From positions 10,044,001 through 10,108,000 of the forward strand of contig OX597820.1 in the NCBI GenBank assembly GCA_951406725.2: a DNA stretch of 64,000 bases. The letters run 5' to 3'. A program made the translations under genes and the position numbers. Positions 931 through 57,865 of the stretch are shown in pieces (position 1 is the first letter of the stretch; the number at the start of each line of letters is the position of its first letter). A model generated the notes under the pieces. That model made no database searches, had not been told where the DNA came from, and saw nothing but the letters and a program-made list of their open reading frames with translations. This stretch comes from Octopus vulgaris. Its lineage: Eukaryota.

Positions 931-1196
931 TATATATATATATATATATAAAATTAATTAAGGGTAGAAATTGATATTTATCAATTAAGACCAGTGGTCT
1001 AGCATATTAAAAAAGAATCCGAAGATTAAAATATTTATATATACCAATTAAGGACTGAACACGAAAAGTGGACAGTCAACATGCTAGATATAGACGTCAA
1101 ATCGTCATTCTCCACAAAAGATTATGTTCTCAGATCAAACTCAACACAAAACCATAGCAATAAACAAGTGAAAAATATACGAAATAAAATAATTAC

Positions 1197-1261
1197 CCAT
1201 GTACTAACTTAGTTTCAGCTGTTATTTTCCGCAAGGAAAACTGCAGCCATCATCAGCATGG
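1197..1261 (-). ncRNA. Type I hammerhead ribozyme, copy 1
   Basis: Minus strand CCATG-CTGATGA-t-GGCTG..(TTTTCC ttgc GGAAAA)..CAGCT-GAAA-CTAA g TTAG-TA^CATGG. Both core boxes, stems I/II/III and a GUA cleavage triplet are present. Confidence 0.85.
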
Positions 1262-1701
1262 TCCGTTATAAATGTAATTTGCTGGACTAAATGCAAACAC
1301 GATACCGAAATATCGCGTGCATGGAGTTCAGCCTATTACATTTGAATATATCTTTCAAATGCCTTTACTCTGGCGCGTTGAGACCCGAGAAAACTAGCCT
1401 GCAGCTAATAATTAGCAGCAGTTAATTTATCGGTTAGAGAACATTTATTTATATAAAATTAATTAAGGGTAGAAATTGATATTTATCAATTAAGACCAGT
1501 GGTCTAGCATATTAAAAAAGAATCCGAAGATTAAAATATTTATATATACCAATTAAGGACTGAACACGAAAAGTGGACAGTCAACATGCTAGATATAGAC
1601 GTCAAATCGTCATTCTCCACAAAAGATTATGTTCTCAGATCAAACTCAACACAAAACCATAGCAATAAACAAGTGAAAAATATACGAAATAAAATAATTA
1701 C

Positions 1702-1766
1702 CCATGTACTAACTTAGTTTCAGCTGTTATTTTCCGCAAGGAAAACTGCAGCCATCATCAGCATGG
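1702..1766 (-). ncRNA. Type I hammerhead ribozyme, copy 2
   Basis: Identical to 1197-1261, offset by 505 nt. Confidence 0.85.
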
Positions 1767-1809
1767 TCCGTTATAAATGTAATTTGCTGGTATATATATA
1801 TATATATAT

Positions 1810-6064: not shown

Positions 6065-6583
6065 TAGTGGTAATATTTGTATAAGTATATTTGTATGTTT
6101 TGGCAAATAAAATTGTACATGTGCTTACGTATTTTGGAGTGAATCTGTATGAGCGAGAAATTTAAAACGGGCGAAGTTGAAATAAGGAAAACAACGATTG
6201 TAAGATTTGTGCAGTTTGCACGGAATGCAAGCGGAAATTGTTGGGAAAGTTTGTTCATCGTTGATTCGTCAATCTTCAACTGAAAATCGGAAGTTGTTAA
6301 ACACATTCAGCGGTCTTTCAGAGAGTTGTTAGGAAATCCATAGCTTGGAACGGTTCTTGATGCTACAGATCGTGTTTGTAGTTGAAGTGTACGTCTAAAT
6401 ACTTTCATTAAAAGAAAAGAGACTTATGAAAGATTAAAACGGAACATGAGGTGTAATATAAAGAGAAAGGTGAGTTGATTGCACTGTTTGCTTGAGCAAG
6501 GTGACCAGTTGCCAGAATTACCAATGCGTTGTACAAAAGTGTTTCGCTGCACACACACACATGTTTCTGATAGACGGAATCGC

Positions 6584-7025
6584 TTTATTCTTTTATTTGT
6601 TTCTGTCACTTTGACTGCGGCCATGCTGTGGCACCACCATTTAGTCGAACAAATCGACCCCAGAACTTCTTTGTAAGCCTAGTACTCATTGTATTGGTCT
6701 CTTTTGCCAAAGCGCTAAGTTATGGGAACGAAAACACACCAACATCGGTTGTCAAGCGACGATTTGGGGACAAACACAGACACACCTACATATACACACA
6801 CGCATACGCACACACACACACACACACACACACCCACACACACACACATATAAATATATATACGACGGGCTTCTTTCAGTTTCCGTCCACCAAATCCACT
6901 CACAAGACTTTGGTCGACCCGAGTCTATAGTAGAAGACACTTGTCCAAATTGCCCCGCAGTGGGACTGAACCCGGAACCATGTGATTGGTAAGCAAGCTA
7001 CTTACCGCACAGCCACTCCTGCGCC
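6584..7025 (-). mobile_element. Full-length tRNA-headed SINE with internal (CA)/(TA) microsatellite
   Basis: Minus head GGCGCAGGAGTGGCTGTGCGGTAAG..GGTTCAGTCCC (A/B-box-like). The tail is CATGGCCGCAGTCAAAGTGACAGAAAC. Confidence 0.85.
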
Positions 7026-7169
7026 ATATATATATACGAAGGCGAGCTGCCAGACGCAATGTATTAAAGCAGGAGTGTTTCAACTGTGGAAACACTGTGA
7101 AAGGCAGCTGAAACACTCCTGTCACAACCTGGGACCTTGAAGACTGCTTTAATGCAAGAAAGTATACTA

Positions 7170-7548
7170 GGCGCAGGAGTGACTGTGTGGTAAGTGGCTT
7201 GCCTACCAACCACATGGTTCTGGGTTCAGTCCCACTGCGTGGCATCTTGGGCAAGTGTCTTCTGCTATAGCCTCAGGCCGACCAATGCCTTGTGAGTGGA
7301 TTTGGTAGACGGAAACTGAAAGAAGCCTGTCGTATATACGTATATATATATGTATGTATGTATATGTTTGTATGCTGGTGTGTTTACGTCCATGTCACTT
7401 AGCGGTTCGGCAAAAGAGATCGATAGAATAAGTACTGGGGTTACAAAGAATAAGTACCGGGGTCGATTTGCTCGACTAAAGGCGGTGCTCCAGCATGGCC
7501 GCAGTCAAATGACTGAAACAAGTAAAAGAGTAAAAGAGTAAAAGAGTA
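7170..7548 (+). mobile_element. Full-length tRNA-headed SINE (same family)
   Basis: GGCGCAGGAGTGACTGTGTGGTAAG head; tail GGCGGTGCTCCAGCATGGCCGCAGTCAAATGACTGAAACAAG followed by (TAAAAGAG)n. Confidence 0.88.
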
Positions 7549-10814: not shown

Positions 10815-10958
10815 ATTTCTTTATTGCCCAAAAGGGGCTAAACATAGAGGGGACAAACAAAGACAGACAAAGGCATTAAGTCGATTACATCGACCCCAGT
10901 GCGAAACTGGTACTTTATTTATCGACCCCGAAAGGATGAAAGGCAAAATCGACCTCGA
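10815..10958 (-). mobile_element. SINE fragment (family of the 61878-62408 array)
   Basis: AAGGGGCTAAACATAGAGGGGACAAACAA..GTCGATTACATCGACCCCAGTGCG..GAAAGGATGAAAGGCAAA. Confidence 0.75.
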
Positions 10959-11147: not shown

Positions 11148-11421
11148 AAGAAGCAGAAAATGGTGTAAACTTTAGATCAAGAAACAAACAAATTGACCAA
11201 CATCGGTTAATTAATTTTTTAATACAAAACATAACATAACATGCTTTAGCGGTATTCCGTCTGTCTTTACGTTCTGAGTTCAAATTTCGCCGAGGTCGAC
11301 TTTGCCTTTCAACCTTTCGGAGTCGCTATATTAAGTACCAGTTGCCTTGTGCCTAGGGATAGTATAGGCAAATGATACCGGTAGTTAGAACGGATATTCC
11401 AACCGCTAAAACTGCTTACTT

Positions 11422-13544: not shown

Positions 13545-13969
13545 ACTCTTTTACTCTTTTCTCTTTTACTTGTTTCAGTCATTTGACTGCGGCCATGCTG
13601 GAGCACCGCCTTTTAGTCGAGCAAATCGACCCCGGGACTTATTCTTTGTAAGCCCAGTACTTATTCTATCGGTCTCTTTTGCCGAACCGTTAAGTGACGG
13701 GGACATAAACACACCAGCATCGGTTGTCGAGCAATGCTAGGGGGACAAACACAGACACACAAATACACACACACATACACATATATACATATATATACAT
13801 ATATACGACAGGCTTCTTTAAGTTTCCGTCTACCAAATCCACTCACAAGGCATTGGTCGGCCCTGGGCTATAGCAGAAGACACTTGCCCAAGATGCCACG
13901 CAGTGGGACTGAACCCGGAACCATGTGGTTGGTTAGCAAGCTACTTACCACAGAGCCACTCCTGCGCCT
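13545..13969 (-). mobile_element. Full-length tRNA-headed SINE with internal microsatellite
   Basis: Near reverse complement of 7170-7548. Confidence 0.88.
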
Positions 13970-14185
13970 ATGTTGTTTAAATGTTCTACACGATGTTGAT
14001 GAAATATTTTCAAATATTAACGTATACATGCGATACTGTTTGTACAAAACCGCTACACACGCAAACCTCTTCTACGCTTTCACAATTTTAATGTTTCCGG
14101 ACCGAAGCCTGAGGCCAGTCTGGAGCACTTCTCGTGTTATTTTAAACTCTTGATGTTCTTAATATATTCTCTGTTTAAATAATAT

Positions 14186-17588: not shown

Positions 17589-17830
17589 CATCCATTCATC
17601 CATCCATCTATAAATACATACATACATGATACATACACACATACATATATACATACTGGTTTAAAATTTTGCCTCAAGGCCAGCAATTCCGGGTGCAGGA
17701 CCAACTCGATTACATCGACCCCAGTGTTCAACTGGTACTTATTTTATCGACCCCGAAAGGATGAAAAGCAAAGTAGACCCCGGCGGAATTTAAACTCAAG
17801 CTGTAACGACAGACGAAAAACCGCTGAATA

Positions 17831-21328: not shown

Positions 21329-22425
21329 TGTATGTACGTACATATGTATGTATGTTTGTATGTGTGCATGTATGTATAATACACACTTTCTATACAGTTT
21401 CATCATCACAAATATACTGACAATAAATATCTCAGCAAAAATTGTCTGTTAAAGTTACTCTAAGATTCAGATGTCTTCTATACAAAACAATCTACGTCAG
21501 AACTTGAAGACTTATTATGATAAATGCCAAACTGAACAATGTCGTGTCTTTTTCTTCACTGCGGGGCAGCAGCTTTGTTGACATCTATATCGTAATAGCG
21601 TTTCTGAGGAAGTCGCCTGCTTTGTACAAAATTTGTCCGTCAGACGACATTTCATTGTTGGAATTTTAATTTTATTTTCACATACAAAATCAAATTTAAT
21701 TCGAGGAAAATTTGACTGACATTTATTCATATTTAAATTTGAAAATAATAGAAGAAATTCGTGGTATCGTTGTATTATTGAACTGAATAAAATATAGCAA
21801 TTTGTATTTCAGTGCGATGATGTAAGCAACAATAAGACGTTTCCTACAATCTGATCTGTTGAACGCCATACATAGACGTGAGAAGCGATGCACATTTAGA
21901 AGTGTCTATGTCGTCTTTCCAACTTATATTTTGTTGAGATTTTAGATAAAAAAACTAAATTCTTTACATAGCTGTATTTTCTCATTCAATTTCTTGTTAT
22001 TTGTCATGGCGACTATAAATAGAGCTCAGGTTTTTATGAGAACATTGTCTTCTGAATATTCCCTTTTAAATATGGAATAGGTGCCAAAATAATTGTAATA
22101 TTTGCATAAATGTTAATTGCAGATTATAAATCATAAAAACATTCTTGCAATCCGCATTTGCAGCTTCTTTACTTTTATTATCAATGCCTTAAGATATTCC
22201 TTAAGTCGCTTTCAAATCCACTCCTAATACTACCAAATATTTATACAGCTTAGCTATTTGGTGGTGACTTTTTTAAACATTCGCACAAGACACTGCGATT
22301 TGGTGTTCTTGTATTTGACATAATCCTTTAGAATTTATCCAAAGTCACAGAAATGCTTTCATTTTATTTTACAGAAGAAATCCATGTTATTGACATCCTC
22401 ACTTCATGCTGCAAATAGTAATATA

Positions 22426-22491
<66 letters not shown>

Positions 22492-22495
<4 letters not shown>

Positions 22496-23033
22496 ATCTT
22501 CATTTCACTTAATTTATCAAGCTTCTGTATTCCTAGCACATATTTCGCCTTAATGTACTGATATATGAAAAATATATGGCTTGTGTTAGTAATACCAGCG
22601 ATAATAATAATTTTTATTTTATCGCAATTTGATTTGTTTACATATTTCTCGATAAATTACGAGCGCCAGGCGATATACCAGAATTCCCTAGTTTTGTCGG
22701 GACGTTCGGAGTCTGCGCAGTGATATGATTAGTTAGAGAGTAAATCATTAGAAGCACATGCTTCTAGTGAGTTAGGATCCCAGAAAGACAGGGTCTCACT
22801 GAAGAATTCTCCCTGAGCAAATAAATTATCTTTATTGCTGAAAAGAAAGAAACTGCAGTCTGAGAATTACCGGTTTAGTAAATGTTTTTATCTTCATTTC
22901 ACTTAATTTATCAAGCTTCTGTATTCCTAGCACATATTTCGCCTTAATGTACTGATATATGAAAAATATATGGCTTGTGTTAGTAATACCAGCGATAATA
23001 ATTATTTTTATTTTATCGCAATTTGATTTGTTT
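22492..23033 (+). mobile_element. Non-coding partial-tandem element (394-nt period) with one hammerhead
   Basis: 22492-22640 is repeated at 22886-23033. The hammerhead lies just before the second copy, and both ends are in (TA)n. Confidence 0.78.
22794..22865 (+). ncRNA. Type I hammerhead ribozyme
   Basis: TCTCA-CTGAAGA-a-TTCT..(AGCAAATAAA..TTTATTGCT)..AGAA-a-GAAA-CTGCAG-TC^TGAGA: 5-bp stem I, palindromic stem III, GUC triplet. Confidence 0.82.
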
Positions 23034-23319
23034 ATATATATATATATATGTGTACACACACACACACACACAGAGGTAGTTAGGGGTAAATCCCAGATGT
23101 TTCCTCTTGAAGCACATCTGTTTATTCCATTATTACAAGCCAATATGTAGTCTCAGCATGACGAATAAATAGTGTCAAAAAAAATTTCCAATTCCTTCGA
23201 GGTGTAGGAAGAAAGTTAGCTTCGAGCAATCCGTAGTGAATATAATAGAAAATAACTGCCAGGAACAATTATCGAAAAGCGATGACCTGAAAAAATGTTC
23301 TTTTTATATTTTTACAAGC

Positions 23320-23699: not shown

Positions 23700-24119
23700 T
23701 CACAAAGTCCAAACGATTAATAAGAAAAAGCCCTCCAGGCTACATCCCGAAAATTCATTTCTTTGCCGAATTTCTACAATGTTTACGGCGATTCGTTTTT
23801 ATATCTTGATTTTTTTTATTTTTCATGCAATTTACGCATGCTTGCACGCGTGGTGAACACAGATCACGTCAAACAGCTCTGAGTAAAGTTCACTATTCAA
23901 TGCATGGGATAAGGCCTAAACAAACACATTATCGATTTTTGCACTTGCGAGATGAATTTAGGAGCAGAAATAGCGCAGTTCAATTTTCATTCGCCTAAAC
24001 TTTAAGTGACCCATTTTTGGTGGTTCTACGATTTGTTGGCTAGGAGGAGATGTGCCGGGAAGTTAAACACACAGACACACACACAGATACACAAGTTGAG
24101 TTATATATATATATAGATA
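23700..24119 (-). mobile_element. Second Helitron-like fragment (5' terminus)
   Basis: Minus strand begins A|TCTATATATATATATAACTCAACTTGTGTATCTGTGTG. The left boundary is approximate. Confidence 0.5.
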
Positions 24120-25460
24120 TTCCTCGGTAGGCGACCAGAGTTGCCGAGTATGCGAAAAAGAATACAAGAATTGCGGAATGGAATATGGGACACCCGGGCT
24201 ACATAAGTTTCATAGTGATTTGAACCACGAAGTGGTAAAATCTAAGCGAGGCGTATACCGCCGTCTATTCTTCAGGTCAAGGATATCTTGGTTAGATTAA
24301 ATGCTACATTGCCACAAGGAGGTACATGTTGATATAAAGATTCAATCAGAATGTGTTGAGAGCACAGTATGTAGGGGGTATATAAATGAGGGGGGAAATA
24401 AGTTATAGAAGGAGAGAAGAAAGGAAAAAAATAAAAATAAAATATAGGGGTGTGAGAGAAAGGGGGAATTTGACGGGGTCGGTGGTAGATAATATAATAG
24501 TTTTAGCTTAATCACAGAATTTAATTGTGAGATTAGCATTTGAAGAGGAGAGATTGGGGAAATATTTTTGATCGTGGGGGACAAAAGAAAGTATGTATAA
24601 ATATAATAAGATAGGGTGGGGAGTTTAAGATTGGCTAGTGGGTCTATGGTCAAAAGTCATAAATTAGTATACGATGTAGGCGTTTGTATTTGTACGTTTA
24701 GGGGTGGAGTGGGTAGGAGGGGGAGGTATGAGAAATATAAGGTGACAAAAATGTTTTAGGTAGGAAGTCAAAATACGGATAGAAAATTGTAATTGAAAAT
24801 TAAGGAATTAGACGGGTAGAAAAAATATTGTTGGTTTAATAATTAGTGGTAGTGAGGGTGGATGAGTGGAAAATGAATATATGAGAGTTATGGAGAGACA
24901 AGAGCGAGGTCGGGTTGTCATTATTTGTATTTCGAGAATAGATTTAGTGCCCGATGTTTGCCGGTGAATATTATACTAATGCGTTCATTGAGACAGTCTG
25001 TGGATTACAAAATAACTATGACCTCGGCTACGCAGAGATCACACTTAATATTATATCTGCTCTATCGTTCGGCGTTGGTGATTATGGACTATTTAAGAAT
25101 GTAAGGAGTTGAGTCAAGCGTTAGTTTATTGATAAGCTGAGATAACGATGTATTGCTAGATTTTGTATGGGATTTGAAGCCAGAGTAGTGATTGCTCACT
25201 CTAGCTTTGAAGGTGGTGCTACATGAACCGATGTAAATGTAGTTGCAGTTGTTAGTTGATACTGTGCATTTATAAACTATGTTTTTAGTAAGACAGCGGT
25301 TATTCAAAGGACAGGAGGTCTGATGCTGCATAGGTTTGTAGGGGGTATTCCGGATGAGGTTGTGATGAGATTGTTGTGACGAATCGGTGTTTGGTTTGTT
25401 ATTATAGTTGGTGCTAAGGTTATCATTTGTTAAGTGGTTGCTATTGCTAACATCCAAACG
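24120..25460 (-). mobile_element. Penelope-like element relic: GIY-YIG endonuclease region plus 3' terminal region
   Basis: ORF 25089-25457 has CPLNNRCLTKNIVYKC..YIYIGSCSTTFKARVSNHYSGF..NTSLS. Further downstream is KCDLCVAE (CxLCxxE motif of Penelope endonucleases), interrupted by stops. Confidence 0.85.
24197..24278 (-). ncRNA. Hammerhead ribozyme motif (slightly decayed) at the 3' end of the Penelope relic
   Basis: GAC-CTGAAGA-ATAG..CTAT-GAAA-CTTATG-TA^GCC. Cores and stem II are intact, with one mismatch each in stems I and III. Confidence 0.65.
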
Positions 25461-25685
25461 TTAAATTCATTACAACACCCAAATATACCACCTGCCATAA
25501 TTGTGAATACCACAGAGGATACCACCAAGTACAATAATTATCATACCATACAACCCAACAATACCACCCTCAACCTCTTAATAATTGACAGCCTTAGCAC
25601 CAACTATAATAACGAACCGAACACTGATTCCACTCTAAATAACAATCCCCTTACAAGCTTTCCAACAATGGTGTAAAATTACTAT

Positions 25686-28517: not shown

Positions 28518-28818
28518 ATCACGGTTCCCCTATCGCTGTTCCCCTATCGCGGTTCACCTAACGCGGTTCACCTATCGTGGTTCACTTATCGCAGTTTACC
28601 TGTCGCGGTTCACCCATCGCGGTTCACCTATCACAGTTCACCTATCGCAGTTCACCTATCGCGGTTCACCTATCGCGGTTCACCTATCGTAGTTCACCTA
28701 TCACGGTTCACCTATCGTGGTTCACTTATCGCAGTCCACCTGTCGTAGTTCACCTATCACGGTTTACCTATCGCGATTCACCTTCGCAGTCCACCTATCG
28801 CAGTTTACCTATCGCAGT
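28518..28818. repeat. 14-bp CpG-rich minisatellite (ATCGCGGTTCACCT)n, about 21 copies
   Basis: Direct inspection; variants mostly at CpG positions. Confidence 0.92.
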
Positions 28819-29495
28819 TTATTATTATTTAAGCCTACGTCGATTCTTCCATGGTGTTGTTTTGCATTTATAATAAAATAAATGTATACAAATTATATAG
28901 AAAATACAGTACACTACTGTTTCTACTTCACGGATCGCGGAGGTTTTTGGAACGTAGCACCCGCACCATATATGAAGTGTGCTTCCACACGGTTTCCGTC
29001 TACTAAATACACTCAAAAGATATTCCCGGGACTACCGTGGAGACATTTGCCAAAGTGGAACTGAATATGAAAGCACGCGGTTGTAAAGCGAGCGCCTTAA
29101 CCACATAGCCACGCCTGCGACTTTAACGCATTTTGTTTTTGAAAATGATCGCTGAATCGCTTCTAATGTAAATATTTATATGTTTGATGTTTTCCAATTA
29201 TAGAAAAATGTATTCACTAAACTAAAAAATCGCCATATATTTCAATGAATTTTTAAAAATAAAACAAAACTCTCATAGATCAATATCCAGTAGAAAATAG
29301 CAGAGGTTCATTTATTTATATATTTGAAAAAAAGACATCGTAAATGCATTTAAATCAGCTCCTGGGCACAGCTCGTGTAACAGTTCACATGTGGACTCGG
29401 AATGAAGTCACATGTTCGCGTCGACATATGTGAATGCAATGACTTTCAGAAGTGTTGTTTAAAATCGATTTAAGCGTTGAAACACACAGGTGGCA

Positions 29496-32449: not shown

Positions 32450-34617
32450 AAGATTCCCCAAAATTTTTCGAAAATTTTCCCCAAAAATTTTTCAAAAATT
32501 TCTGCCGAAAATTTTTCGAAAATTATCACCGGAAATTTTTCGAAAATTTCCACCGGAAATTTTCCCCAAAAATTTATCGAAAATTTTTCCCAAAAACTTT
32601 TTCAACAATTTTCCCCAAGAATTTTTCGAAAATTTTCCCCAAAAATTTTCCCCAAAAATTTTTCGAAAATTTTTACCGAAAATTTTAACCAAAAATTTTT
32701 CGAAAATTTTCACCGGAAATTTTTGCCGAAAATTCTACCCAAAAATTTTTCAGAAATTTTCACCGAAAATTTGACCCAAAAAATTTTCACCAAAAATTTT
32801 ACCCAAGAATTTTTCGAAAATTTTTACCGGAAATTTTACCCAAAAATTTTCACAAAACCTTTTTCGAAAATTTTCACCAAAAATTTTTCAGAAATTTTAA
32901 CAGAAAATTTGACCCCAAAAATTTTGACCAAAAATTTTACCCAAAAATTTTTCGAAAATTTTCACCGAAAATTTTACCCAAAAATTTTCACCAAAACTTT
33001 TTCGAAAATTTCCACCAAAAATTTTTCGAAAATTTTCACCGGAAATTTTTGCCGAAAATTTTACCCAAAAATTTTTCGAAAATTTTCACCGAAAATTTTA
33101 CCCAAAAATTTTCACCAAAACTTTTTCGAAAATTTTCACCAAAAAAAATTTTCGAAAATTTTCACCGGAAATTTTTGCCGAAAATTTTACCCAAAAATTT
33201 TCGAAAATTTTCACCGAAAATTTTACCCAAAAATTTTCACCAAAACTTTTTCGAAAATTTTCACCAAAAATTTTCGAAAATTTTCACCGGATATTTTCAC
33301 CGAAAATTTTACCAAAAAATTTTCACCAAAAATTTTTTTCAATAATTTTTCGAAAATTTTTGCCTAAAATTTTCCCCAAAATTTTTCGAAAATTTTCATG
33401 GAAATTTTACCCAAAAATTTTTCTGAAAATTTTTACCCAAAATTTTACCCAAAAATTTTTCGAAAATTTTCACCGGAAATTTTTGCCGAAAATTCTACCC
33501 AAAAATTTTTCAGAAATTTTCACCGAAAATTTTACCCAAAAATTTTCACCAAAACTTTTTCGAAAATTTTCACCAAAAAGTTTTCCAAAATTTTCACCGG
33601 AAATTTTTGCCGAAAATTTTACCCAAAAATTTTTCGAAAATTTTCACCGAAAATTTTACCCAAAAATTTTCACCAAAACTTTTTCGAAAATTTTCACCAA
33701 AAAGTTTTCGAAAATTTTCACCGGATATTTTCACCGAAAATTTTACCAAAAAATTTTCACCAAAAATTTTACCCAATAATTTTTCGAAAATTTTTGCCTA
33801 AAATTTTCCCCAAAAATTTTTCGAAAATTTTCATGGAAATTTTACCCAAAAATTTTTCGAAAATTTTTACCCAAAATTTTACCCAAAAATTTTTCGAAAA
33901 TTTTCACCGGAAATTTTTGCCGAAAATTCTACCCAAAAATTTTTCAGAAATTTTCACCGAAAATTTTACCAAAAAATTTTCACCAAAAATTTTACCCAAA
34001 AATTTTTCGAAAATTTTCACCGAAAATTTTACCCAAGAATTTTCGAAAATTTTTGCCGAAAATTATACCCAAAAATATTTCGAAAATTTTCACCGAAAAT
34101 ATTACACAAAAATTTTTCAGAAATTTTCACCGAAAATTTTACGAAATTTTCACCGGGAAATTTTTGCCGATAATTCTACCCAAAAATTTTTCGAAAATTT
34201 TTACCGTAAATTTTACCCAAAATTTTTGAGTAAAATTTTCGGTGAAAATTTCTGAAAAATTATTGGGTAGAATTTTCGGCAAAAATTTCCGGTGAAAATT
34301 TTCGAAAAACTTTTGGGGAAAATTTTCGAGAAAGTTTTGGTGAAAATTTTTGGGTAAAATTTTCGGTAAAAAGTTTCGAAAAATTTTGGGGAAAATTTTC
34401 GAGAAAGTTTTGGTGAAAATTTTTTGGTAAAATTTTCGGTGAAAATTTCTTAAAAATTTTTGGGTAAAATTTTCGAAAAATTTTTGGGGAAAATTTTCGG
34501 CAAAAATTTTCGAAAATTCTTGGGTAAAATTTTCGGTGAAAATTTTCACCGAAAATTTGACCCAAAAAATTTTCACCAAAAATTTTACCCAAGAATTTTT
34601 CGAAAATTTTCACCGGA
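32450..34617. repeat. A-tract satellite array 1 (GAAAATTTT/CCCAAAAATTTT/CACCG subunits, ~10-13 bp), with inverted segment ~34225-34545
   Basis: Direct inspection. Confidence 0.95.
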
Positions 34618-36470: not shown

Positions 36471-38230
36471 AAAAAATTCCTCAAAAATTTTTCTAAAATT
36501 TCTGCCGAAAATTTTCACCGAAAATTTTCCCCAAAAATTTTTCGAAAATTTTCCCCCAAAAGTTTTCAAAAATTTTCCCCAAGAATTTTTCGAAAATTTT
36601 CACTGAAAATTTTCCCCAAAAATTTTCGAAAATTTTCACCAAAAATTTTTCACAAAAATTTTCCGAAAATTTTCACCGAAAATTTTACCCAAAAATTTTC
36701 ACCAAAGATTATTGGAAAATTTTCCCCAAGAATTTTTCGAAAATTTCCACCAAAAATTTTCCCCAAAAATCTTTCGAAAATGTTTCGAAAATTTTCCTCA
36801 AAACTTTTTCGAAAATTTTCGCTAAAAATTTTTCGAAAATTTTCACCGAAAATTTTCCCCAAAATTTTTCGTAATTTTTCCCCAAAAAGTTTTCGAAAAT
36901 TTTTACCAAAAATTTAACCCAAAAATTTTTCGAAAATTTTCACAAATTTTTACCCAAAAATTTTCACCAAAAATTTTTCGAAAATTTTACCCCAGAATTT
37001 ATCGCAAATTTTCACCGGAAATTTTATCCAAATATTTTTCGAAACTTTTCACCGAAAATTTTACCCAAAAATTTTCACCGAAAATTTTATCCAAAAATTT
37101 AACCCAAAAATTTTACCCAAGAATTTTTCGAAAATTTTACTCAAAAATTTTTTGAAAATTTTCTGCAAAAATTTTACCCAAAAATTTTTCGAAAATTTTT
37201 ACCGAAAATTTTACCCAAAAATTTTCACCAAAACTTTTCGAAAATTTTCGCCAAAAATTTTTCGAAAATTTTCACCGGAAATTTTTGCCGAAAATTCTAC
37301 CCAAAAATTTTTCAGAAATTTTCACCAAAAATTTTACCCAAGAATTTTTCGAAACTTTTTGCCTAAAATTTTACCCAAAAATTTTTCGAAAATTTTACCC
37401 AAAACTTTTTGGAAAATTATCCCAAAAAATTTTTCGAAAATTTTCCCCAAAAATCTTTCGAAAATTTTCACCGGAAATTTTTGCCGAAAATTTTTACTTA
37501 AAAATTTTTCGAAAATTTTTACCGAAAATTTTACCCCAAAATTTTCACCAAACCTTTTTCGAAAATTTTCCCCAAAAATTTTTCAAAAATTTTCACCGGA
37601 AATTTTACCCAAAAATTTTTCTAAAATTTTTACCGAAAATTTTACCCAAAAATTTTCACCAAAACTTTTTCGAAAATTTTCCCAAAAATTTTTCGAAAAT
37701 TTTCACCGAAAATTCTTGCCGAAAATTCTACCCAAAAATTTTTCGAAAATTTTCACCGAAAATTCTTGCCGAAAATTCTACCCAAAAATTTTTCGAAAAT
37801 TTTACCCGAAAATTTTTCGCAAATTTTCACCGAAAATTTTACCCCAAAATATTTCGAAAATGTTCACCGAAAATTTTACCCAAAAATTTTTCGAAAGTTT
37901 TCACCGAAAATTTTTGCCGAAAATTCTACCCAAAAATTTTTCGAAAGTTTTTGCCGGAAATTTTCCCTAAAAATTTTTCGAAAATTTTCACCGAAAATTT
38001 TTGCCGAAAATTCTACCCAAAAATTTTTCGAAAATTTTACCCGAAAATTTTTCGCAAATTTTCACCGAAAATTTTACCCCAAAATATTTCGAAAATGTTC
38101 ACCGAAAATTTTACCCAAAAATTTTTCGAAAATTTTCACCGAAAATTTTTGCCGAAAATTCTACCCAAAAATTTTTCGAAAATGTTCACCGAAAATTCTA
38201 CCCAAAAATTTTCCGAAGATTTTCACCGAT
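36465..38230. repeat. A-tract satellite array 2
   Basis: Same subunits. Runs from the Helitron-end flank to GATCCTCCCAAATTTACAAAC. Confidence 0.95.
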
Positions 38231-41200
38231 CCTCCCAAATTTACAAACTTATTTTAGCGGTCTTTCAGTTTTTCTAAGCCCTGTAAAAGGATTCGGAGGG
38301 TTGGTCCGCCAGCCTATCTATCTATCTATTTGCTTCCGTGTTGCTCATGCTTAAGTTGTCGTGTATGTATGTATATATATATGTATGTATGTATATATGT
38401 ATGTACGGATGGATGTAAAGTAAAACAAAACAGACGAATTTACTTTTTTACGTGTTTCAGTCATTTGACTGTGGCCATGCTGGAGCACCGCCTTTAGTTG
38501 AGCAAATTGACCCTAAGACTTATTCTTTGTAAGCCTTGTACTTATTCTAACGGTGTCGTTTGCCTAACCGCTCAGTTACGGTGACGTAAACACCAGCATC
38601 CGTTTCAAGCGATGTTGGGAGAGAGGACAAACACAGACACACAAGCACACACAAGCACACACACATACACACACACACACACACATACACACACACACAC
38701 ACATATATATAAATATATTTGACGGGCTTCTTTCAGTTTCTGTCTACCAAATCCACTCACAAGGCTTTGGTCGGCCTGAGGCTATAGTAGAAGACACCTG
38801 CCCAAGGTGCCATGCAGTGGGACGGAACCCGTAACCATGTGGTTCGTAAGTAACCTACTTACAACACAGCCACTCCTACGCCTATGTTTATTTATATAAT
38901 ATTTATTTACATCATTTTACGCATATTCAATTAACAATGAATATCATTATGTAAGGACAATCTTATAACCTGATTGCCTTATTAAATCTTTAGAAATTGC
39001 TTATCATTCATTTGTTATTTTTAGTATTGATATGGCGTAGACGACATTGTTCTCTTGTGGTAATAATCGCCAATCTCGAAATTGCAAAATATACATTTGG
39101 CTAATCTGCTATATATCAACCTGTTTATCTATCTGGGTTTATGTATCTCTATGTATGAGTGTATGAGTGCCTGTCTGTGTGTGTGCATGTGCCTCATTGA
39201 ATCTGTGAATGACAGTACCAAACTATTTTATATTTTTGAGATGAGAAATTATGTACATTATTTACGATTGACTGATAGGTATCCTCGCCTTGTTTCTTGT
39301 TATCACAACGTTTCGGCTGGTGTACTTTCCAGCCTTCGCTAGGTGTACTAGTGGAATTTCGAACCCTTTATTTGTCTCATAGGGCACTCTGTTCTTATTC
39401 CTAAGGTATGTTGATGATGTGATTTTTCTGTTGATATTATCTAAGTTTAATCATAGGCAGCGATTTAAAAAAATAATATTAACAGTAAACTAACATCGGC
39501 AACATACCTTAGGAATGAGAACAGAGTACCCCATTAGTTAAATAAAGGGCTGGGTTTGAAATTCCACCAGAATACTTGATGAAGGCTGGAGAGTATACCA
39601 GCCGAAACGTGGTAACAACAAACAAGATGAGGACAAATATAGGTCAAATGTAAATAAAAATATATCATACTATATTTCGTTAATATTTGAGTCAGGATGA
39701 TAACCAGGAATATGAGACCTAGGTGTTACGAAATAGTGTCAAGACAACCCAAAGCATGAAGACAGAGCGTCTAATTGGTTGCTTGAACACAGAGAAACAG
39801 AAACGTAATGATGTAAAAATACAAAAAAATACAAATGACAGAACGACGAGAATAGATGGCAGACAAAAACGCGAAATAAAATGTAATAAATTTGTTAATA
39901 ATGAAAGATTAAAAATAAAATATAAAATAATAAAACATATAAAAGGAGCAAATTACGTTTGTATTTCTCTGTGTTCAAGTAACTACATCCTACGTTTGAA
40001 ATAATTACCAGTCGTATTAGGTAATGGGGACATATATAAATCCTGAAAATACCGAAATATTTAAGAGTGGTTTTGTCTTTGATTATAGGTTTATTCGAAT
40101 AGTGTTGACCTGATGTTAAACAGTGTCACCAACACCTTTCCAACTTCCTGGATATTACTATGACAAGTCCCAGGATGCACAGAACCGCTTTCCACGGCAT
40201 ATAGAAGACTGAAATCGCGACATTCCCTCTATATGGAGCGCCGGTCCATTATTAGGTAACTCACTTACAGCTGAGTGGACTGGATCAATGTGAAATGAAG
40301 ATTTTTTTCTAAAAAAAAAAAAACAGCGCACCGCCAGGTCCAACAACCGAAACCACGATCTTGTGTGCACTATTCTATCTGCTGGACCACGGGCCTTCAC
40401 ACTAAGCAGTATTAACAACGACATTTCAAATAGTGAACGATATCGCGTCTTTTCCTATTTTGTCAACAACTCCTGCAACAAATATGTTCTAATTAAGTCA
40501 TTGAGAAGTTGGAGCATTTGCAAGTTACTTAAGGTTTAGTCTGGGGCACGGCAAACACTCAGTTTTGAAACTCTTTTGTGGCATAGCTACAGTGTGTATG
40601 TCCTCCGAGGCATTCCCTCAGTTTGACGCCCGTCGCCCCGTGGTCTGTCCCATAAATAGGCTTATAAAACAAACCCGAATGTAGTCTCCATAAAAGTTCC
40701 ACCCCAGGCGGACCACCCATATTCCCCCCATCCAGCTCGCCAACGGCATTTCTTGTCCTTTTAGGTAAACGATTAAATCACTGGAATCCTCTGCAAGCAG
40801 TTTGTAGTCCCTTAATTCATAGTGACGTATGCAATTCATTTAGGCAAATGAGTTTATAGTTGTGGCTCTCTACAAGCAATGCTGTTTTAACTTTGCATCG
40901 TGAATCAACTGTCATTCGTGGGGATCTTCAACAGCTAACGATATCCTATTATTATTTCGTTTATTCGGTGAAATAGCAAAGTTGTAAGATCGTCGAATAA
41001 CACGATTTATGGAATTCGTACCGAATGACGGCGTTTTGTGTTTCAATTTCCAGCCCCAAAATAAACTTTTGCCTTTCATCCATTTGAAGTTGATGAGTAA
41101 AGTACGAGTCCTTGGTAATAAATTATTGTAATTAACATAACATCGGACCAGCTGTGTTTTGCTTATTTCTCCGGCTGTTTGTTTTCTGATGGTAACGTCT

Positions 41201-42855: not shown

Positions 42856-43813
42856 TTTCGAAAATTTTCACCGGAAATTTTTGCCGAAAATTTTACCCAA
42901 AAATCTTTCAGAAATTTTCACCGAAAATTTTACCAAAAAATTTTCACCAAAAATTTTACTCAAAAATTTTTCGAAAATTTTTACCGAAAATTTTACCCAA
43001 AAATTTTCACCAAAACTTTTTCGAAAATTTTCCCAAAAATTTTTCGAAAATTTTCACCGGAAATTTTTGCCGAAAATTCTACCCAAAAATTTTTCGAAAA
43101 TTTTAATTTCAAAAATTTTCGGGTAAAAATTTTCGAAAATTTTCGAAAAATTTTTGGTGAAAATTTTTGGCAAAATTTTCGGTGAAAATTTTCGAAAAAT
43201 TTTGGGTAAAACTTTCGAAAAATTTTGGTGAAAATTTTAACACGAAAATTTTCGACAAAAATTTTGACCAAAAATTTTTGGTGAAAATTTTTAATAAAAC
43301 TTTTTCAAAAATTTTCACCAAATATTTTTCGAAAATTTTCACCGGAAATTTTTGCCGAAAATTTTACCCAAAAATTTTTCAGAAATTTTCACCGAAAATT
43401 TTACCAAAAATTTTCAAAAAATTTTGGTGAAAAGTTTCCCAAAATTTTTCGAAAATTTTCACCGGAAATTTTTGCCGAAAATTTTACCAAAAATTTTTTT
43501 TTGCAGAAAATTTTACCAAAAATTTTCACCAAAATTTTCGAAAAATTTTCGAAAAATTTTTGGGTAAAATTTTCAAAAATTTTTGCCGAAAATTTTACCA
43601 AAAAATTTTCACCAAAAATTTTTGGGTCAAAATTTTCGAAAATTTTCACAAAATTTTTCGAAAATTTTCACCAAAAATTTTACTAAAAAATTTTTCGAAA
43701 ATTTTCACCGAAAATTTTACGAAAATTTTTCGAAGATTTTCACCGAAAATCCTTTTACAAACTTATTCTAGCGGTCCCCAAAAATTTTTCGAAAATTTTT
43801 CGGACCGGAAATT

Positions 43814-44480: not shown

Positions 44481-46020
44481 TTTTTCGAAACTTTTTACCG
44501 AAAATTTTCCCCAAAAATTTTCACCAAAACTTTCTCGAAAATTTTCCCCAAAAGTTTTTCGAAAATTTTCACCGGAAATTTTTGCCGAAAATTCTACCCA
44601 AAAATTTTTCAGAAATTTTCACCGAAAATTTTACTCAAAAAGTTTCGAAAATTTTCACCGAAAATTTTCCCAAAAATTTTCACCAAAACCTTTTAGAAAA
44701 TTTTCCCCAAAAATTTTTCGAAAATTTTCACCGGAAATTTTTTCTACAAAAATTTTTCAGAAATTTTCACCAAAATTTTACCAAAAATTTTTCGAAAATT
44801 TTCACCGGAAATTTTTGCCGAAAATTCTATTTTTCGAAAATTTTTACTGTAAATTTTACCCAAACATTTTCACCAAAACTTTTTCGAAAATTTTCCCCAA
44901 AAATTTTTAGAAAATTTTCACCGCAAATTTTTGCCGAAAATCTTACCCAAAAATTTTTCAGAAATTTTAACAGAAAATTTGACCCAAAAATTTTACCCAA
45001 AATTTTCACCAAAACTTTTTCGAAAATTTTCACCAAATATTTTTCGAAAATTTTCACCGGAAATTTTTGCCGAAAATTTACCAAAAATTTTTCAGAAATT
45101 TTAACAGAAAATTTGACCCAAAAAAATTTTCACCAAAAATTTTACCAAAAATTTTCGAAAATTTTACCCAATAATTTTTCGAAAATTTTCACCGGAAATT
45201 TTTGCCGAAAATTTTACCAAAAAATTTTTCGAAATTTTCACCGAAAATTTTACCAAAAAATTTTCACCAAAAATTTTTCCCAAAATTTTCACCAAAACTT
45301 TTTCGAAAATTTTCACCGGAAATTTTTTGCCGAAAATTCTACCCAAAAATTTTCGAAAATTTTTACCGTAAATTTTACCCAAACATTTTCACCAAAACCT
45401 TTTCGAAAATTTTCTCCAAAAATTTTTTCGAAAAGTTTCACCGGAAATTTTTGCCGAAAATTCTACCCAAAAATTTTTCAGAAATTTTAACAGAAAATTT
45501 GACCCAAAAAATTTTCACCAAAAATTTTACCCAAAATTTTCACCAAAACTTTTTCAAAATTTTCACCAAATATTTTTCGAAAATTTTCACCGGAAATTTT
45601 TGCCGAAAATTTTACCCAAAAATCTTTCAGAAATTTTCACCGAAAATTTTACCCAAAAATTTTCACCAAAACTTTTTTCGAAAATTTTCCCCAAAAATTT
45701 TTCGAAAATTTTCACCGGAAATTTTTGCCGAAAATTCTACCCAAAAATTTTTCGAAAATTTTTACCGTAAATTTTACCCAAACATTTTCACCAAAACTTT
45801 TTCGAAAATTTTCCCCAAAAATTTTTCGAAAAGTTTCACCGGAAATTTTTGCCGAAAATTTTACCAAAAAAATTTTCACCAAAAATTTTACTCAAAAATT
45901 TTCACCAAAAATTTTACCCAAGAATTTTTCGAAAATATTCACCGAAAATTTTAATAAAAAATTTTTCGAAAATGTTCACCGAAAATTTTACACAAAAATT
46001 TTCCGAAGATTTTCACCGAT
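44478..46020. repeat. A-tract satellite array 4
   Basis: Direct inspection; colinear with array 5. Confidence 0.95.
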
Positions 46021-46171: not shown

Positions 46172-46496
46172 GTATTTGCTTCCGTGTTGCTCATGCTTAA
46201 GTTGTCGTGTATGTATGTATATACGTATGTATGTATGTATGGATGGATGGATGTAAAGTAAAACAAAACAGACGAATTTACTCTTTTACTCTTTTACGTG
46301 TTTCAGTCATTTGACTGTGGCCATGCTGGAGCACCGCCTTTAGTTGAGCAAATCGACCCCAGGACTTATTCTTTGTAAGCCTAGTACTTATTCTAACGGT
46401 GTCGTTTGCCTAACCGCTCAGTTACGGTGACGTAAACACACCAGCATCCGTTTCAAGCGATGTTGGGGAGGGGACAAACATAGACACACAAGCACA

Positions 46497-46540
<44 letters not shown>

Positions 46541-49352
46541 AATATATTTGACGGACTTCTTTCAGTTTCTGTCTACCAAATCCACTCACAAGGCTTTGGT
46601 CGGCCTGAGGCTATAGTAGAAGACACTTGCCTAAGGTACCACGCAGTGGGACTGAACCCGGAACCATGTGGTTCGTAAGTAACCTACTTACAACACAGCC
46701 ACTCCTACGCCTATGTTTATTTATATAATATTTATTTACATCATTTTACGCATATTTCATTAACAATGAATATCATTATGTAAGGACAATCTTATAACCT
46801 TATTGCCTTATTAAATCTTTAGAAGTTGCATATCATTCATTTGTTATTTTTAGTATTGATATGGCGCAGACGATATTGTTATCTTGTGGTAATAATCGCC
46901 AATCTCAAAATTGCAAAATATACATTTGGCTAATCTGCTATATATCCACCTGTTTATCTGTCTGGATTTATGTATCTCTATGTATGTGTATATGAGTGCC
47001 TGTCTGTGTGTGTGCAAGTGCCTCATTGTATCTGTGAATGACAGTACCAAACTATTTTATATTTTTGAGATGAGAAATTATGTACATTATTTACGATGGA
47101 CTGATAGGTATCCTCGCCTTGTTTCTTGTTATCACAACGTTTCGGCTGGTGTATTTTCCAGCCTTCACCAGGTGTTCTAGTGGAATTTCGAACCCTTTAT
47201 TTGTCTCATAGGGCACTCTGTTCTTATTTCTAAGGTATGTTGATGATGTGATTTTTCTGTTGATATTATCTAAGTTTAATCATAGGCAGCGATTTAAAAA
47301 AATAATATTAACAGTAAACTAACATCGGCAACATACCTTAGGAATGAGAACAGAGTACCCCATTAGTTAAATAAAGGGCTGGGTTTGAAATTCCACCAGA
47401 ATACTTGATGAAGGCTGGAGAGTATACCAGCCGAAACGTTGTGGTAACAACAAACAAGATGAGGACAAATATAGGTCAAATGTAAATAAAAATATATCAT
47501 ACTATATTTCGTTAATATTTGAGTCAGGATGATAACCAGGAATATGAGACCTAGGTGTTACGAAATAGTGTCAAGACAATCCAAAGCATGAAGACAGAGC
47601 GTCTAATTGGTTGCTTGAACACAGAGAAATAGAAACGTAATGATGTAAAAATACAAAAAAATACAAATGACAGAACGACAAGAATAGATTTCAGACAAAA
47701 ACGCGAAATAAAATGTAATAAATTTGTTAATAATGAAAGATTAAAAATAAAATATAAAATAATAAAACATAAAAAAGGAGCAAATTACGTTTGTATTTCT
47801 CTGTGTTCAAGTAACTACATCCTACGCTTGAAATAATTACCAGTCGTATTAGGTAATGGGGACATATATAAATCCTGAAAATACCGAAATATTTAAGAGT
47901 GGTTTTGTCTTTGATTATAGGTTTATTCGAATAGTGTTGACCTGATGTTAAACAGTACCAACAACACCTTTCCAAACTCCTGGACATTACTATGTCGAGT
48001 CACAGGATGCACAGAACAGGTTGTCCGGTTTCCACGGCATATAGAAGACTAAAATCGCGACATTCCCTCTAAATGGAGCGCCGGTCCATTACTAGGTAAC
48101 TCACTTACAGCTGAGTGGACTGGATCAATGTGAAATGAAGATTTTTGTCTAAAATAAAAACAGCGCACCGCCAGGTCCAAGAACCGAAACCACGATCTTG
48201 CGTGCACTATTCTAACTGCTGGACCACGCGCCTTCACACTAGACAGTATTAACAACGACATTTTAAATAGCGAATGATATCGCGTCTTTTCCTATTTTGT
48301 CAACAACTCCTGCAACAAATATGTTCTAATTAAACCATTGAGAAGTTGGAGCGTTTGCAAGTTACTTAAAGTTTAGTCTGGACCACGGCAAACACTCAGT
48401 TTTAAAAATCTTTTGTGGCAGCCATTTCCACAGTGGCATAGCCACAGTGTGTGTGTTCTCCGAGTCATGCCCTGAGTTTGACACCCGTCGCCCCGTGGTC
48501 TGTCCCATAAATAGGCTTATAAAACAAACCCGAATGTACTGTCTCCATAAAAATACCACCCCGGGCGGACCACCCATATTGCCCCCATCCAACTCCCCAA
48601 CGGGTTTTCCTGTCCTTTTAGGTAAACGATTAAATCACTGGAACCCTCTGCAGGCAGTTTGTAGTTCCTTAATTCAAAGTCACATAGGCAATTCAGTTAG
48701 GTAAATGAGTTTATAGTTGGGGCCCTATACAGGCAACGCTGTTTTAACTTTGCATCGTGAATCAACTGTCATTCGTTGGGATCTTCAAAAGCTAACGATA
48801 TCCTATTATTCTTTCGTTTATTCGGTGAAATAGCAAAGTTATAAAATCATCGAATGATACGATTTATGGAATTCGTACCGAATGACGGCGTTTTGTGTTT
48901 CAGACTCCAGCCCCAAAATAAACTTTTGCCTTTCATCCATTTGAAGTTGATGAGTAAAGTACGAGTCCTTGGTAATAAATTATTGTAATTAACAGAACAT
49001 CGGACCAGCTATGTTTTACTTATTGCTCCGGCTGTTTGTTTTCTGATGGTAACGTCTGAGACGCCATTGCAGCAATGTTTTATCGGCCGTTATAAAAATG
49101 ACAATGAAAGGGAGAGACTTCTTGCGTGAATGTGTGACTGCTAGACCTCCATAAAACATCTTGTTCAGTCCGGTGTCATAACTGGACATAGTGAATAACG
49201 AGGTTTGATATTTTAGTCATCGTTATGTTTTCTGGAAGATACAGATCTACGGTTCCACATGACATACGGACATACCCAGGTGAAGTGTTTAATGTAAAAC
49301 GCTTTGAAACTTTGTCACAAGGTTAGTAATGTTTGGGGAGTGAGTAACTGGT
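46020..49352 (+). repeat. Block B, copy 2 (partial)
   Basis: Colinear with 38230-41495; ends at GAGTAACTGGTG, then satellite. Confidence 0.95.
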
Positions 49353-50980
49353 GATTTTTCGAAACTTTTTACCGAAAATTTTCCCAAAAATTTTCACCAA
49401 AACTTTCTCGAAAATTTTCCCCAAAAGTTTTTCGAAAATTTTCACCGGAAATTTTTGCCGAAAATTCTACCCAAAAATTTTTCAGAAATTTTCACCGAAA
49501 ATTTTACTCAAAAATTTTACCCAAAAATTCTTCGAAAATTTTCCCCAAAAATTTTCACCAAAACTTTTTAGAAAATTTTCCCCAAAAATTTTTAGAAAAT
49601 TTTCACCGGAAATTTTTGCCGAAAATTCTACCAAAAATTTTTCAGAAATTTTCACAGAAAATTTTACCCAAAAATTTTTCGAAAATTTTCACCGGAAATT
49701 TTTGCCGAAAATTTATTTTTTCGAAAATTTTTACTGTAAATTTTACCCAAACATTTTCACCAAAACTTTTTCGAAAATTTTCCCCAAAAATTTTTCGAAA
49801 ATTTTCACCGGAAATTTTTGCCGAAAATTCTACCCAAAAATTTTTCAGAAAATTTTCAGAAATTTTAACAGAAAATTTGACCCAAAAAATTTTACCCAAA
49901 AATTTTCACCAAAACTTTTTCGAAAATTTTCACCAAATATTTTTCGAAAATTTTCACCGGAAATTTTTGCCGAAAATTTTACCCAAAAATTTTTCAGAAA
50001 TCTTAACAGAAAATTTGACCCAAAAAATTTTCACCAAAAATTTTATCCAAAAATTTTCGAAAATTTTACCCAATTATTTTTCGAAAATTTTCACCGGAAA
50101 TTTTTGCCGAAAATTTTACCCAAAAATTTTTCAGAAATTTTCACCGAAAATTTTACCAAAAAATTTTCACCAAAAATTTTACTCAAAAATTTTTCGAAAA
50201 TTTTTACCGAAAATTTTACCCAAAAATTTTCACCAAAACTTTTTCGAAAATTTTCCCCAAAAATTTTTCGAAAATTTTCACCGGAAATTTTTGCCGAAAA
50301 TTCTACCCAAAAATTTTTCGAAAATTTTTACCGTAAATTTTACCCAAACATTTTCACCAAAACCTTTTCGAAAATTTTCCCCAAAAATTTTTCGAAAATT
50401 TTCACCGGAAATTTTTGCCGAAAATTCTACCCAAAAATTTTTCAGAAATTTTAACAGAAAATTTGACCCAAAAAATTTTCACCAAAAATTTTACCCAAAA
50501 ATTTTCACCAAAACTTTTTCAAAAATTTTCACCAAATATTTTTCGAAAGTTTTCACCGGAAATTTTTGCCGAAAATTTTACCCATAAATTTTTCAGAAAT
50601 TTTCACCGAAAATTTTACCCAAAAATTTTCACCAAAACTTTTCGAAAAGTTTCCCAAAAATTTTTCGAAAATTTTCACCGGAAATTTTTGCCGAAAATTC
50701 TACCCAAAAATTTTTCGAAAATTTTTACCGTAAAATTTTACCCAAACATTTTCACCAAAACTTTTTCGAAAATTTTCCCCAAAAATTTTTCGAAAAGTTT
50801 TCACCGAAATTTTTGCCGAAAATTTTACCAAAAAATTTTCACCAAAAATTTTACTCAAAAATTTTCACCAAAAATTTTACCCAAGAATTTTTCGAAAATA
50901 TTCACCGAAAATTTTAATAAAAAATTTTTCGAAAATGTTCACCGAAAATTTTACACAAAAATTTTCCGAAGATTTTCACC
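49351..50980. repeat. A-tract satellite array 5
   Basis: Direct inspection. Confidence 0.95.
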
Positions 50981-51066
50981 GATCCTCCCAAATTTACAAA
51001 CTTATTCTAGCGGTCCTTCAGTTTTTCTAAGCCCTGTAAAAGGATTCGGAGGGTTGGTCCGCAAGC

Positions 51067-57205: not shown

Positions 57206-57377
57206 GGGCGGAGAAAGGGAGAGAGAGGGGGGAGAAACGGAGAGAGAGAGAGAGAGAGTGGTGAGGTAAGAAATTAGATGTTTCCATTAAAATTCAGTTC
57301 AAACAAACGTACGATTCCTTTTATTTCCGATCGACGGTGCCGTGGTTTGTAAGACGTTGACTAATGACTTGCTAAAT

Positions 57378-57779
57378 ACTCTCTTTTCTCTTTTACTTGT
57401 TTCAGTCATTTGACTGCGGCCATGCTGGAGCACCGCCTTTAATCGAGCAACTCGACCCCGGTACTTATTCTTTTGTAAGCCCAGTACTTATTCTATCGGT
57501 CTCTTTTGCCGAACCGCTAAGTGACGGGGACATAAACACACCAGCATCGGTTGTCAAGCAATGTTAGGGGGACAAACACAGACACACAGACACGCATATA
57601 TGTATATACATATATACGACGGGCTTCTTTCAGTTTCCGTCTACTACATCCACTCACAAGGCTTTGGTCGGTCCGAGGCTATAGTAGAAGACACTTGCCC
57701 AAGATGCCACGCAGTGAGACTGAACCCAGAACCATGTGGTTGGTTAGCAAGCTACTTACCGCACAGCCACTCCTGCGCT
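57378..57779 (-). mobile_element. Full-length SINE (7170 family)
   Basis: Highly similar to 13545-13969. Confidence 0.88.
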
Positions 57780-57865
57780 CTATGAATTTTTCATTACGTG
57801 GGTTCGAAATATATTTGAAGACGACTATTTCTTAGAAACAGAATATCGACGACATTCTAAGAAAA

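Follow-up and report, generated by a model that had tools for sequence, protein, structure and literature searches.

The element at positions 22492-23033 belongs to a family of non-coding retroelements that is present in many copies, bears a hammerhead and has a constant 3' end in (TA)n. We consider it quite probable that this element represents one member of an abundant non-coding repeat, in which each 394-nt unit has a single predicted hammerhead; it is likely an animal non-LTR retrozyme, likely inserted into (TA)n by a Penelope-like reverse transcriptase/endonuclease, and likely a dead end. The stretch or a part of it is contained in 20 of the 24 listed public runs, which come from 8 studies and two organisms and one of which may be the source of the window itself, and the contigs aligned to 22492-22885 number 575, 244 and 1,047 in three large runs from two organisms, with the caveat that summed contig depth does not equal copy number. 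The repeat is multi-copy; a single copy in the genome is what the earlier note on this DNA had named as refuting its reading. The features of the element, together with a second element from the same 64-kb window (the whole stretch of DNA analysed), are as follows.

22421-22491, no strand: left (TA)n flank, the insertion target
22492-22639, plus strand: 5'-truncated copy corresponding to the final 148 nt of the unit
22640-23033, plus strand: full 394-nt unit, non-coding (family variants of about 396-402 nt)
22640-22645, plus strand: TA-like hexamer (5/6) that continues the unit past the insertion 3' end, a possible priming microhomology
22745-22770, plus strand: 11-bp hairpin, -14.1 kcal/mol
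22992-23019, plus strand: predicted hairpin just 5' of the element 3' end, -7.4 kcal/mol
23034-23072, no strand: right (TA)n(CA)n flank, with a TA run at 23034-23049 followed by (CA)n
951-1790, minus strand: comparison element between TA flanks, with a 505-nt unit and two complete hammerheads whose predicted cuts fall after 1707 and 1202

The element consists of a 148-nt partial copy and a full 394-nt unit set between TA runs, which bears out the partial-tandem layout, the TA flanks (22421-22491 and 23034-23049) and the lack of an ORF that had been described earlier. The segments 22492-22639 and 22886-23033 differ by a single mismatch in 148 positions (22609 A, 23003 T) at a spacing of 394, and the truncated copy starts at the equivalent of 22886, which is 25 nt past the predicted cut. 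In the runs aligned to 22492-22885 the letter found at 23003 is present at nearly all depth, and the letter at 22609 is private to this copy, suggesting that the copy is young. The unit has a GC content of 34.5%, and its longest ATG-initiated ORF when circularised is 52 aa; an ORF combining a reverse transcriptase with a GIY-YIG domain is absent from the element, as are a 30-40 bp tail and an inverted 5' arm from the locus, and no target-site duplication is readable in the surrounding compound microsatellite. The hexamer at 22640-22645 is matched by 4% of unit positions that score equally well, and the corresponding hexamer of the 951-1790 element is 6/6 TA-like, with 1% of positions scoring equally. 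The latter element also has a hairpin at a place similar to 22992-23019. The perfect hairpin previously placed at 22749-22766 is real and extends to 22745-22770, although a perfect 8-bp inverted repeat arises in 72 of 1,000 shuffles.

The ribozyme-like portion of the unit comprises the following elements.

22794-22865, plus strand: type I hammerhead motif with extended helix II and palindromic helix III, predicted cut after 22860
22794-98/22861-65, plus strand: helix I, 5 Watson-Crick pairs
22799-805, plus strand: CUGAAGA core
22807-10/22844-47, plus strand: helix II, running on into an internal loop and a 9-bp stem-loop
22849-52, plus strand: GAAA core
helix III, plus strand: two pairs (A-U, C-G) with the loop UGCA, then GUC
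22789-22815, plus strand: predicted pseudoknot between CAGGG (22789-93) in the 5' flank of helix I and CCCTG (22811-15) in the helix II loop

The core and helix arrangement of the type I hammerhead is present, namely the CUGANGA and GAAA core segments, the UH, and helices I-III with helix I open. A relaxed hammerhead descriptor finds 3 sites in the window (22794-22865 and two in the 951-1790 element) as against an average of 0.07 matches per shuffled window (30 shuffles), and of 20,000 dinucleotide-shuffled versions of the unit 8 match it. The motif had earlier been termed a canonical GUC hammerhead cut after 22860; the motif and the GUC stand, but "canonical" is too strong given an A·A at positions 10.1/11.1, the lack of an Rfam match and a helix III of 2 bp. 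The conserved 10.1/11.1 pair is G-C (PMC4209133); here it is replaced by the unpaired A22806·A22848, with no other letter at 3% depth or more in four runs aligned to 22492-22885. Rfam returns no hammerhead match for the motif of 22492-23033 either at gathering or at E up to 10, and it also misses both motifs of the 951-1790 element; the long helix II is likely behind these misses. The predicted local fold around the motif is not that of a hammerhead (z +0.69), in the nested ensemble of the circle helices I and II pair with probabilities of 0.02-0.08, and the circular unit is only modestly stable (z -1.4, with 9 of 100 shuffles equally good). A kink-turn in helix II was also examined by eye and rejected as a poor fit.

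The eight letters from A15.1 to U16.1 form a palindrome through which two copies can pair over 8 bp (-11.1 kcal/mol), and short palindromic third helices of this kind are typical of animal hammerheads acting as dimers (Cervera and de la Pena, PMC4209133). By analogy, the 2-bp helix III suggests that a dimer is likely to be needed for cleavage. The axolotl HHR_Amex2 likewise combines a 2-bp helix III with mismatched letters (U·U) where helix II begins, and its monomer is reported to be 22% cleaved and its dimer more so (PMC7229834), which makes self-cleavage of the predicted 22794-22865 ribozyme plausible. Among Xenopus retrozymes, 8 of 9 dimers are reported as uncleaved in vitro (bioRxiv 10.64898/2026.07.22.740005).

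The pentamer CAGGG lies directly 5' of helix I and CCCTG directly 3' of the helix II strand, with 5/5 Watson-Crick pairs between them (null 0.6%) and a pairing probability of 0.76 in the nested ensemble. Alongside helices I and II this pairing could form solely as a pseudoknot, and a pseudoknot of 5 bp is its likely role in the modelled structure, comparable to those known in approximately 40% of hammerheads (Perreault et al. 2011, PMC3088659); it could equally act as an inhibitory fold instead. At the matching place the ribozyme of the 951-1790 element has 4/5 pairs formed by different letters (null 6.5%). Across the aligned runs no substitution is listed in either strand though the neighbouring positions vary, and there is no covariation, so that these unvarying pairs prove nothing.

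Sister subfamilies at 85-92% identity coexist in the public runs (X8, X13, X1, X7 and X9), and their variants touch several hammerhead positions. C22797T (X13) and G22862A (X8, X13) occur on separate contigs and are unphased; if combined, they would keep the helix I pair, an apparent compensatory change. In a sister subfamily A22848C yields the usual C11.1 (1 contig in X8 and 3 contigs in X13). Position 7 is U in X13 and C in a loose end from X7, which also carries G10.1, and one X13 contig has the core change U4C.

These observations can be accommodated in a cycle in which a source locus with at least two units would be transcribed, paired hammerheads would cut after each GUC to give a monomer of about 400 nt, and a host ligase would close the monomer into a circle. 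In the next step, (TA)n DNA would be nicked by a Penelope-like protein, which would begin to reverse-transcribe the RNA from a constant site within it, at position 394 of the unit and 173 nt beyond the cut; 542 nt, or 1.38 units, would be copied across one intact cut site before synthesis stopped. Since a linear monomer running from cut to cut would yield only 173 nt, either the template would have been a circle or an uncut multimer, or a template jump would have occurred; of these, the circle is modestly favoured. The features expected of Penelope-like insertion are seen in the family: the partial tandem, the fixed 3' end, a variable 5' end (few seen) and the microsatellite target; partial tandems, TA targets and an internal start of reverse transcription have been described for Penelope-like elements (PMC8557442, PMC11167929). 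With one ribozyme, 22492-23033 is unable to release a unit-length monomer. A 2026 preprint treats monomer copies as non-transposing offspring and copies with at least two consecutive units bearing complete ribozymes as "active" (Li et al., bioRxiv 10.64898/2026.07.22.740005); the single ribozyme leaves this locus short of the latter, and it is filed, by its sequence, as a monomer-type offspring copy with a predicted ribozyme.

It is quite possible, if short of probable, that the same element was inserted by the same type of enzyme with no circle involved, the template being an uncut tandem transcript and the ribozyme a weak one or a passenger. This account overlaps the favoured explanation, of which it is a version minus the circle step. 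The A·A at the base of helix II is in line with it, as is the anole Penelope-like protein, which used uncut RNA in vitro and for which ribozyme mutants inserted normally (PMC11167929). In addition, on a half-cut dimer, one cut at the upstream ribozyme only, copying would run off 25 nt beyond the 5' end of the element. Against this, the core is intact in the main family, helix I shows the apparent compensation, the pseudoknot is likely, and the axolotl ribozyme cleaves, and does so well as a dimer, despite its U·U (PMC7229834).

An improbable alternative is that a longer autonomous Penelope-like element was truncated and inserted twice, the sequence being nothing but its 3' tail (pseudo-LTR); hammerheads do occur in the terminal repeats of Penelope-like elements, most of which are 5'-truncated (PMC4209133, PMC8557442). 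The structure of the family in the public runs speaks against it. The junction from 23033 to 22640 is present in all 4 further runs aligned to 22640-23033, in variants with several substitutions and indels, and contigs close on themselves at unit length: those of 426 nt in X1 and 432 nt in X6 overlap by 30 nt each, giving units of 396 and 402 nt, and X14 has a self-closing contig of 460 nt. A closed contig arises alike from circular RNA and from tandem DNA, and the RNA nature of the runs is a guess. The occurrence of this junction in divergent variants, taken together with closure at unit length, indicates that the junction is a trait of the family and that the unit is the element. Moreover, 0 of the 29 loose ends listed run upstream from 22640 into other sequence; a further 66 lie outside that listing. 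The joint from 22885 to 22492 was discarded as evidence of a junction, being merely the window's own continuation, and the contigs of X1, X6, X8, X13 and X14 that span the predicted cut are uninformative on cleavage.

The fixed 3' end of the retrozyme-like family is also seen beyond the window: among the matches listed, at least 20 contigs of X5 and one of X9 pass from the unit into (TA)n after 22645, which corresponds to the same 3' end as that of 22492-23033 because the unit continues with the TA-like hexamer. A different 5' end is seen in one listed X5 match (3 contigs) with a TA-rich flank before 22592; this tally of ends covers 20 of the 82 loose-end matches to 22492-22885, and few 5' ends are seen. 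A metagenome pattern scan returned 0 matches.

The window as a whole is repeat-rich and AT-rich, with many microsatellites and TA runs everywhere. Degenerate AT-rich minisatellite blocks with 11-13-nt periods occupy 32460-34550, 36484-38224, 42859-43750, 44481-46019 and 49354-50982, and these sit in duplications of about 5 kb with 87-95% identity and a strong negative GC skew. A dispersed SINE-like family is represented at 61878-62362 by 2.6 near-identical tandem copies of a 184-nt unit, with related pieces at 10815-10957, 11241-11343 and 17703-17825. Another dispersed repeat, abundant and about 430 nt long, occurs in both orientations with copies 76-90% alike, at 6580-7035, 7168-7548, 13550-13974, 38439-38891, 46277-46720, 51252-51686 and 57377-57784, and a GC-rich 14-nt minisatellite with 21.6 copies lies at 28518-28819. 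It is very improbable that the 394-nt unit is itself a satellite or a repeat of SINE type whose copies were multiplied by a LINE or by DNA recombination, its hammerhead-like motif being incidental: the lack of an Rfam match, the weak predicted fold and the ubiquity of TA runs would fit it, but not the descriptor's rarity in shuffles (8 of 20,000), the fixed internal 3' end without poly(A), or the presence of another family that has this layout with two ribozymes.

The class of enzyme proposed above to have mobilised the unit is represented in the window by a neighbour.

24118-25460, minus strand: decayed, 5'-truncated Penelope-like element with a C-terminal GIY-YIG domain and a long 3' UTR, ending in (TA)n

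This neighbour lies 1 kb from 22492-23033, and its GIY-YIG frame is broken by stop codons in the C-terminal part. The GIY-YIG fragment scores below the cut-off in Pfam (E 0.021), has 0 matches in NCBIfam, and in a homologue search had 0 of 16 candidates scored; its Atlas cosine is 0.95 to a cluster in which 12% of the members carry GIY-YIG. Relatives at E up to 0.001 number 1,215; one of them is P0016 (722 aa, 48% identical), in which the match falls at residues 581-657, behind reverse transcriptase motifs recognized by eye. Pfam names GIY-YIG in 1 of the 6 relatives scanned and nothing in P0016. On this by-eye reading P0016 would show a reverse transcriptase followed by the endonuclease, the order that, with a cysteine linker, is reported for Neptune and Nematis (PMC8557442). 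Some 82 nt short of its end, the neighbour itself has a hammerhead core (cut position 24200) whose helix II is branched and which lacks an adjacent helix I. The segment 25381-25440 recurs inverted at 25571-25630, a diverged inverted arm at the 5' end of the Penelope-like element. Comparison of the unit with the 3' UTR of 24118-25460 found no similarity beyond an AT-rich 13-mer, and the neighbour therefore evidences the presence of the class and its use of the same target, not a partnership with unit 22640-23033: it is an example of the likely mobiliser class.

The 951-1790 element has the same layout, in agreement with the earlier suggestion that there are several families of ribozyme retroelements. 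Its hammerheads are of type I with an extra U after A9, and, their predicted cuts being 505 nt apart, it could release a full monomer. Beside it, at 534-930 on the minus strand, is a 139-aa open frame that by eye resembles the C-terminal end of a LINE protein, with no Pfam match. The description of 22492-23033 as an independent mini-element is unproven, as the two units align end to end with their hammerhead cores in register, though 35 of 500 shuffles score as well. Two short motifs are common to the unit starts of both elements.

22650-22659, plus strand: motif 1, CGATAAATTA, common to the unit start of the 951-1790 element
22688-22701, plus strand: motif 2, a 14-mer 13/14 identical to 1397-1384 on the minus strand, a candidate promoter element or protein-binding site

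Motif 1 occupies positions 11-20 of the 394-nt unit and 24-33 of the 951-1790 unit (24 and 9 of 5,000 shuffles). The echo between the two unit starts remarked on in the earlier note holds for CGATAAATTA but not for GCGCCAG, which lies at an unmatched spacing and is lost in a sister subfamily that keeps TCGATAAATT. Across the window CGATAAATT is not enriched, being seen 4 times as against 1.84 expected (12 of 100 shuffles), its position alone being notable. Motif 2 occupies unit positions 49-62 and 59-72 respectively, and these are the sole two sites in the window at 2 mismatches or fewer. Alignments of the unit starts as good as the observed ones are obtained in 4, 20 and 121 of 3,000 shuffles for 80, 100 and 150 nt; this comparison was chosen after the fact and is not in the top 12 of 520 segment pairs, where AT-rich parts lead.

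To judge by sequence, there is roughly an even chance that the unit-start motifs are promoter elements, a lesser one that they form a protein-binding site, and a smaller one still that they reflect chance or plain ancestry. Elements of snRNA-type promoters are spaced near -60. If motif 2 stood at about -60, transcription would start at the hairpin near 22745-22750; newt satellite 2 uses a promoter of the snRNA type (cited in PMC2220036). The anole Penelope-like protein, for its part, starts copying inside the RNA and needs about 55-60 nt downstream of the start (PMC11167929), and motifs 1 and 2 both lie within such a region. We tentatively raise the rather doubtful possibility that the retrozyme families of this genome share a design, in which CGATAAATT and the 14-mer at 22688, lying shortly past the insertion 3' end, would be followed by a hairpin and then by a pseudoknot-stabilised hammerhead. 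The motifs would then either be where a Penelope-like protein grips the circular RNA, with copying from the TA-like hexamer, or serve as a promoter of the snRNA type, and insertions of 1.38 units would be direct prints of rolling-circle reverse transcription.

The non-LTR retrozymes of metazoans such as coral, mussel and axolotl have non-coding units of 170-400 nt with GC below 45%, one type I hammerhead per unit and head-to-tail junctions (Cervera and de la Pena 2020, PMC7229834). The present family resembles them in its 394-nt length, GC of 34.5%, lack of coding capacity, single type I hammerhead and head-to-tail family junction, the mussel unit of 350-390 bp being of closely similar size (PMC7229834), and on its sequence it appears to share most of the testable features of these elements. 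It differs from them in the insertion of 1.38 units with one ribozyme, the extended helix II, the likely pseudoknot and the fixed 3' end in (TA)n, and cleavage and circles are predictions here. The partial tandem, 5' truncation, microsatellite target, hammerhead near the 3' end and internal start are also shared with Penelope-like elements with a C-terminal GIY-YIG of the Neptune/Nematis type and with non-autonomous Chlamys such as MRC1 (PMC8557442, PMC4209133, PMC11167929), whereas 22492-23033 is without their ORF and without a 30-40 bp tail or inverted arm. Compared with the described pseudoknotted hammerheads (PMC3088659) and newt satellite 2 (PMC2220036), the pseudoknot and promoter of the present unit are predictions.

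A Penelope-like origin and mobilisation of retrozymes has already been proposed in the 2026 preprint (bioRxiv 10.64898/2026.07.22.740005). Its evidence is co-occurrence and pLTR similarity across 35 species, with no mollusc among the groups it names; the evidence here is an insertion footprint, and pLTR similarity is absent with the one neighbour compared (24118-25460). The main text of PMC7229834 makes no mention of octopus or cephalopods, and a literature search that left out most subscription journals found no paper on cephalopod retrozymes, though families from molluscs or cephalopods may be listed in the supplementary material to PMC7229834 and to the preprint. The class is already described, and what the 394-nt unit adds to this known kind of animal element is a new family. 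What appears to be new is the likely 5-bp pseudoknot, the unphased compensatory change in helix I, and the second motif (13/14) common to 951-1790.

The dependence of retrozymes on Penelope-like enzymes has so far been proposed without biochemical demonstration. The 394-nt family offers an example that is young and abundant and whose insertion footprint can be read, which makes it usable test material rather than a new kind of system; the 951-1790 element, being able to release a full monomer, is the better test substrate. The comparison of these two families, which lie 21 kb apart, gives two candidate cis motifs and a candidate pseudoknot, and if the shared-design reading is true, they would provide a defined cis signal for testing how animal retrozymes move.
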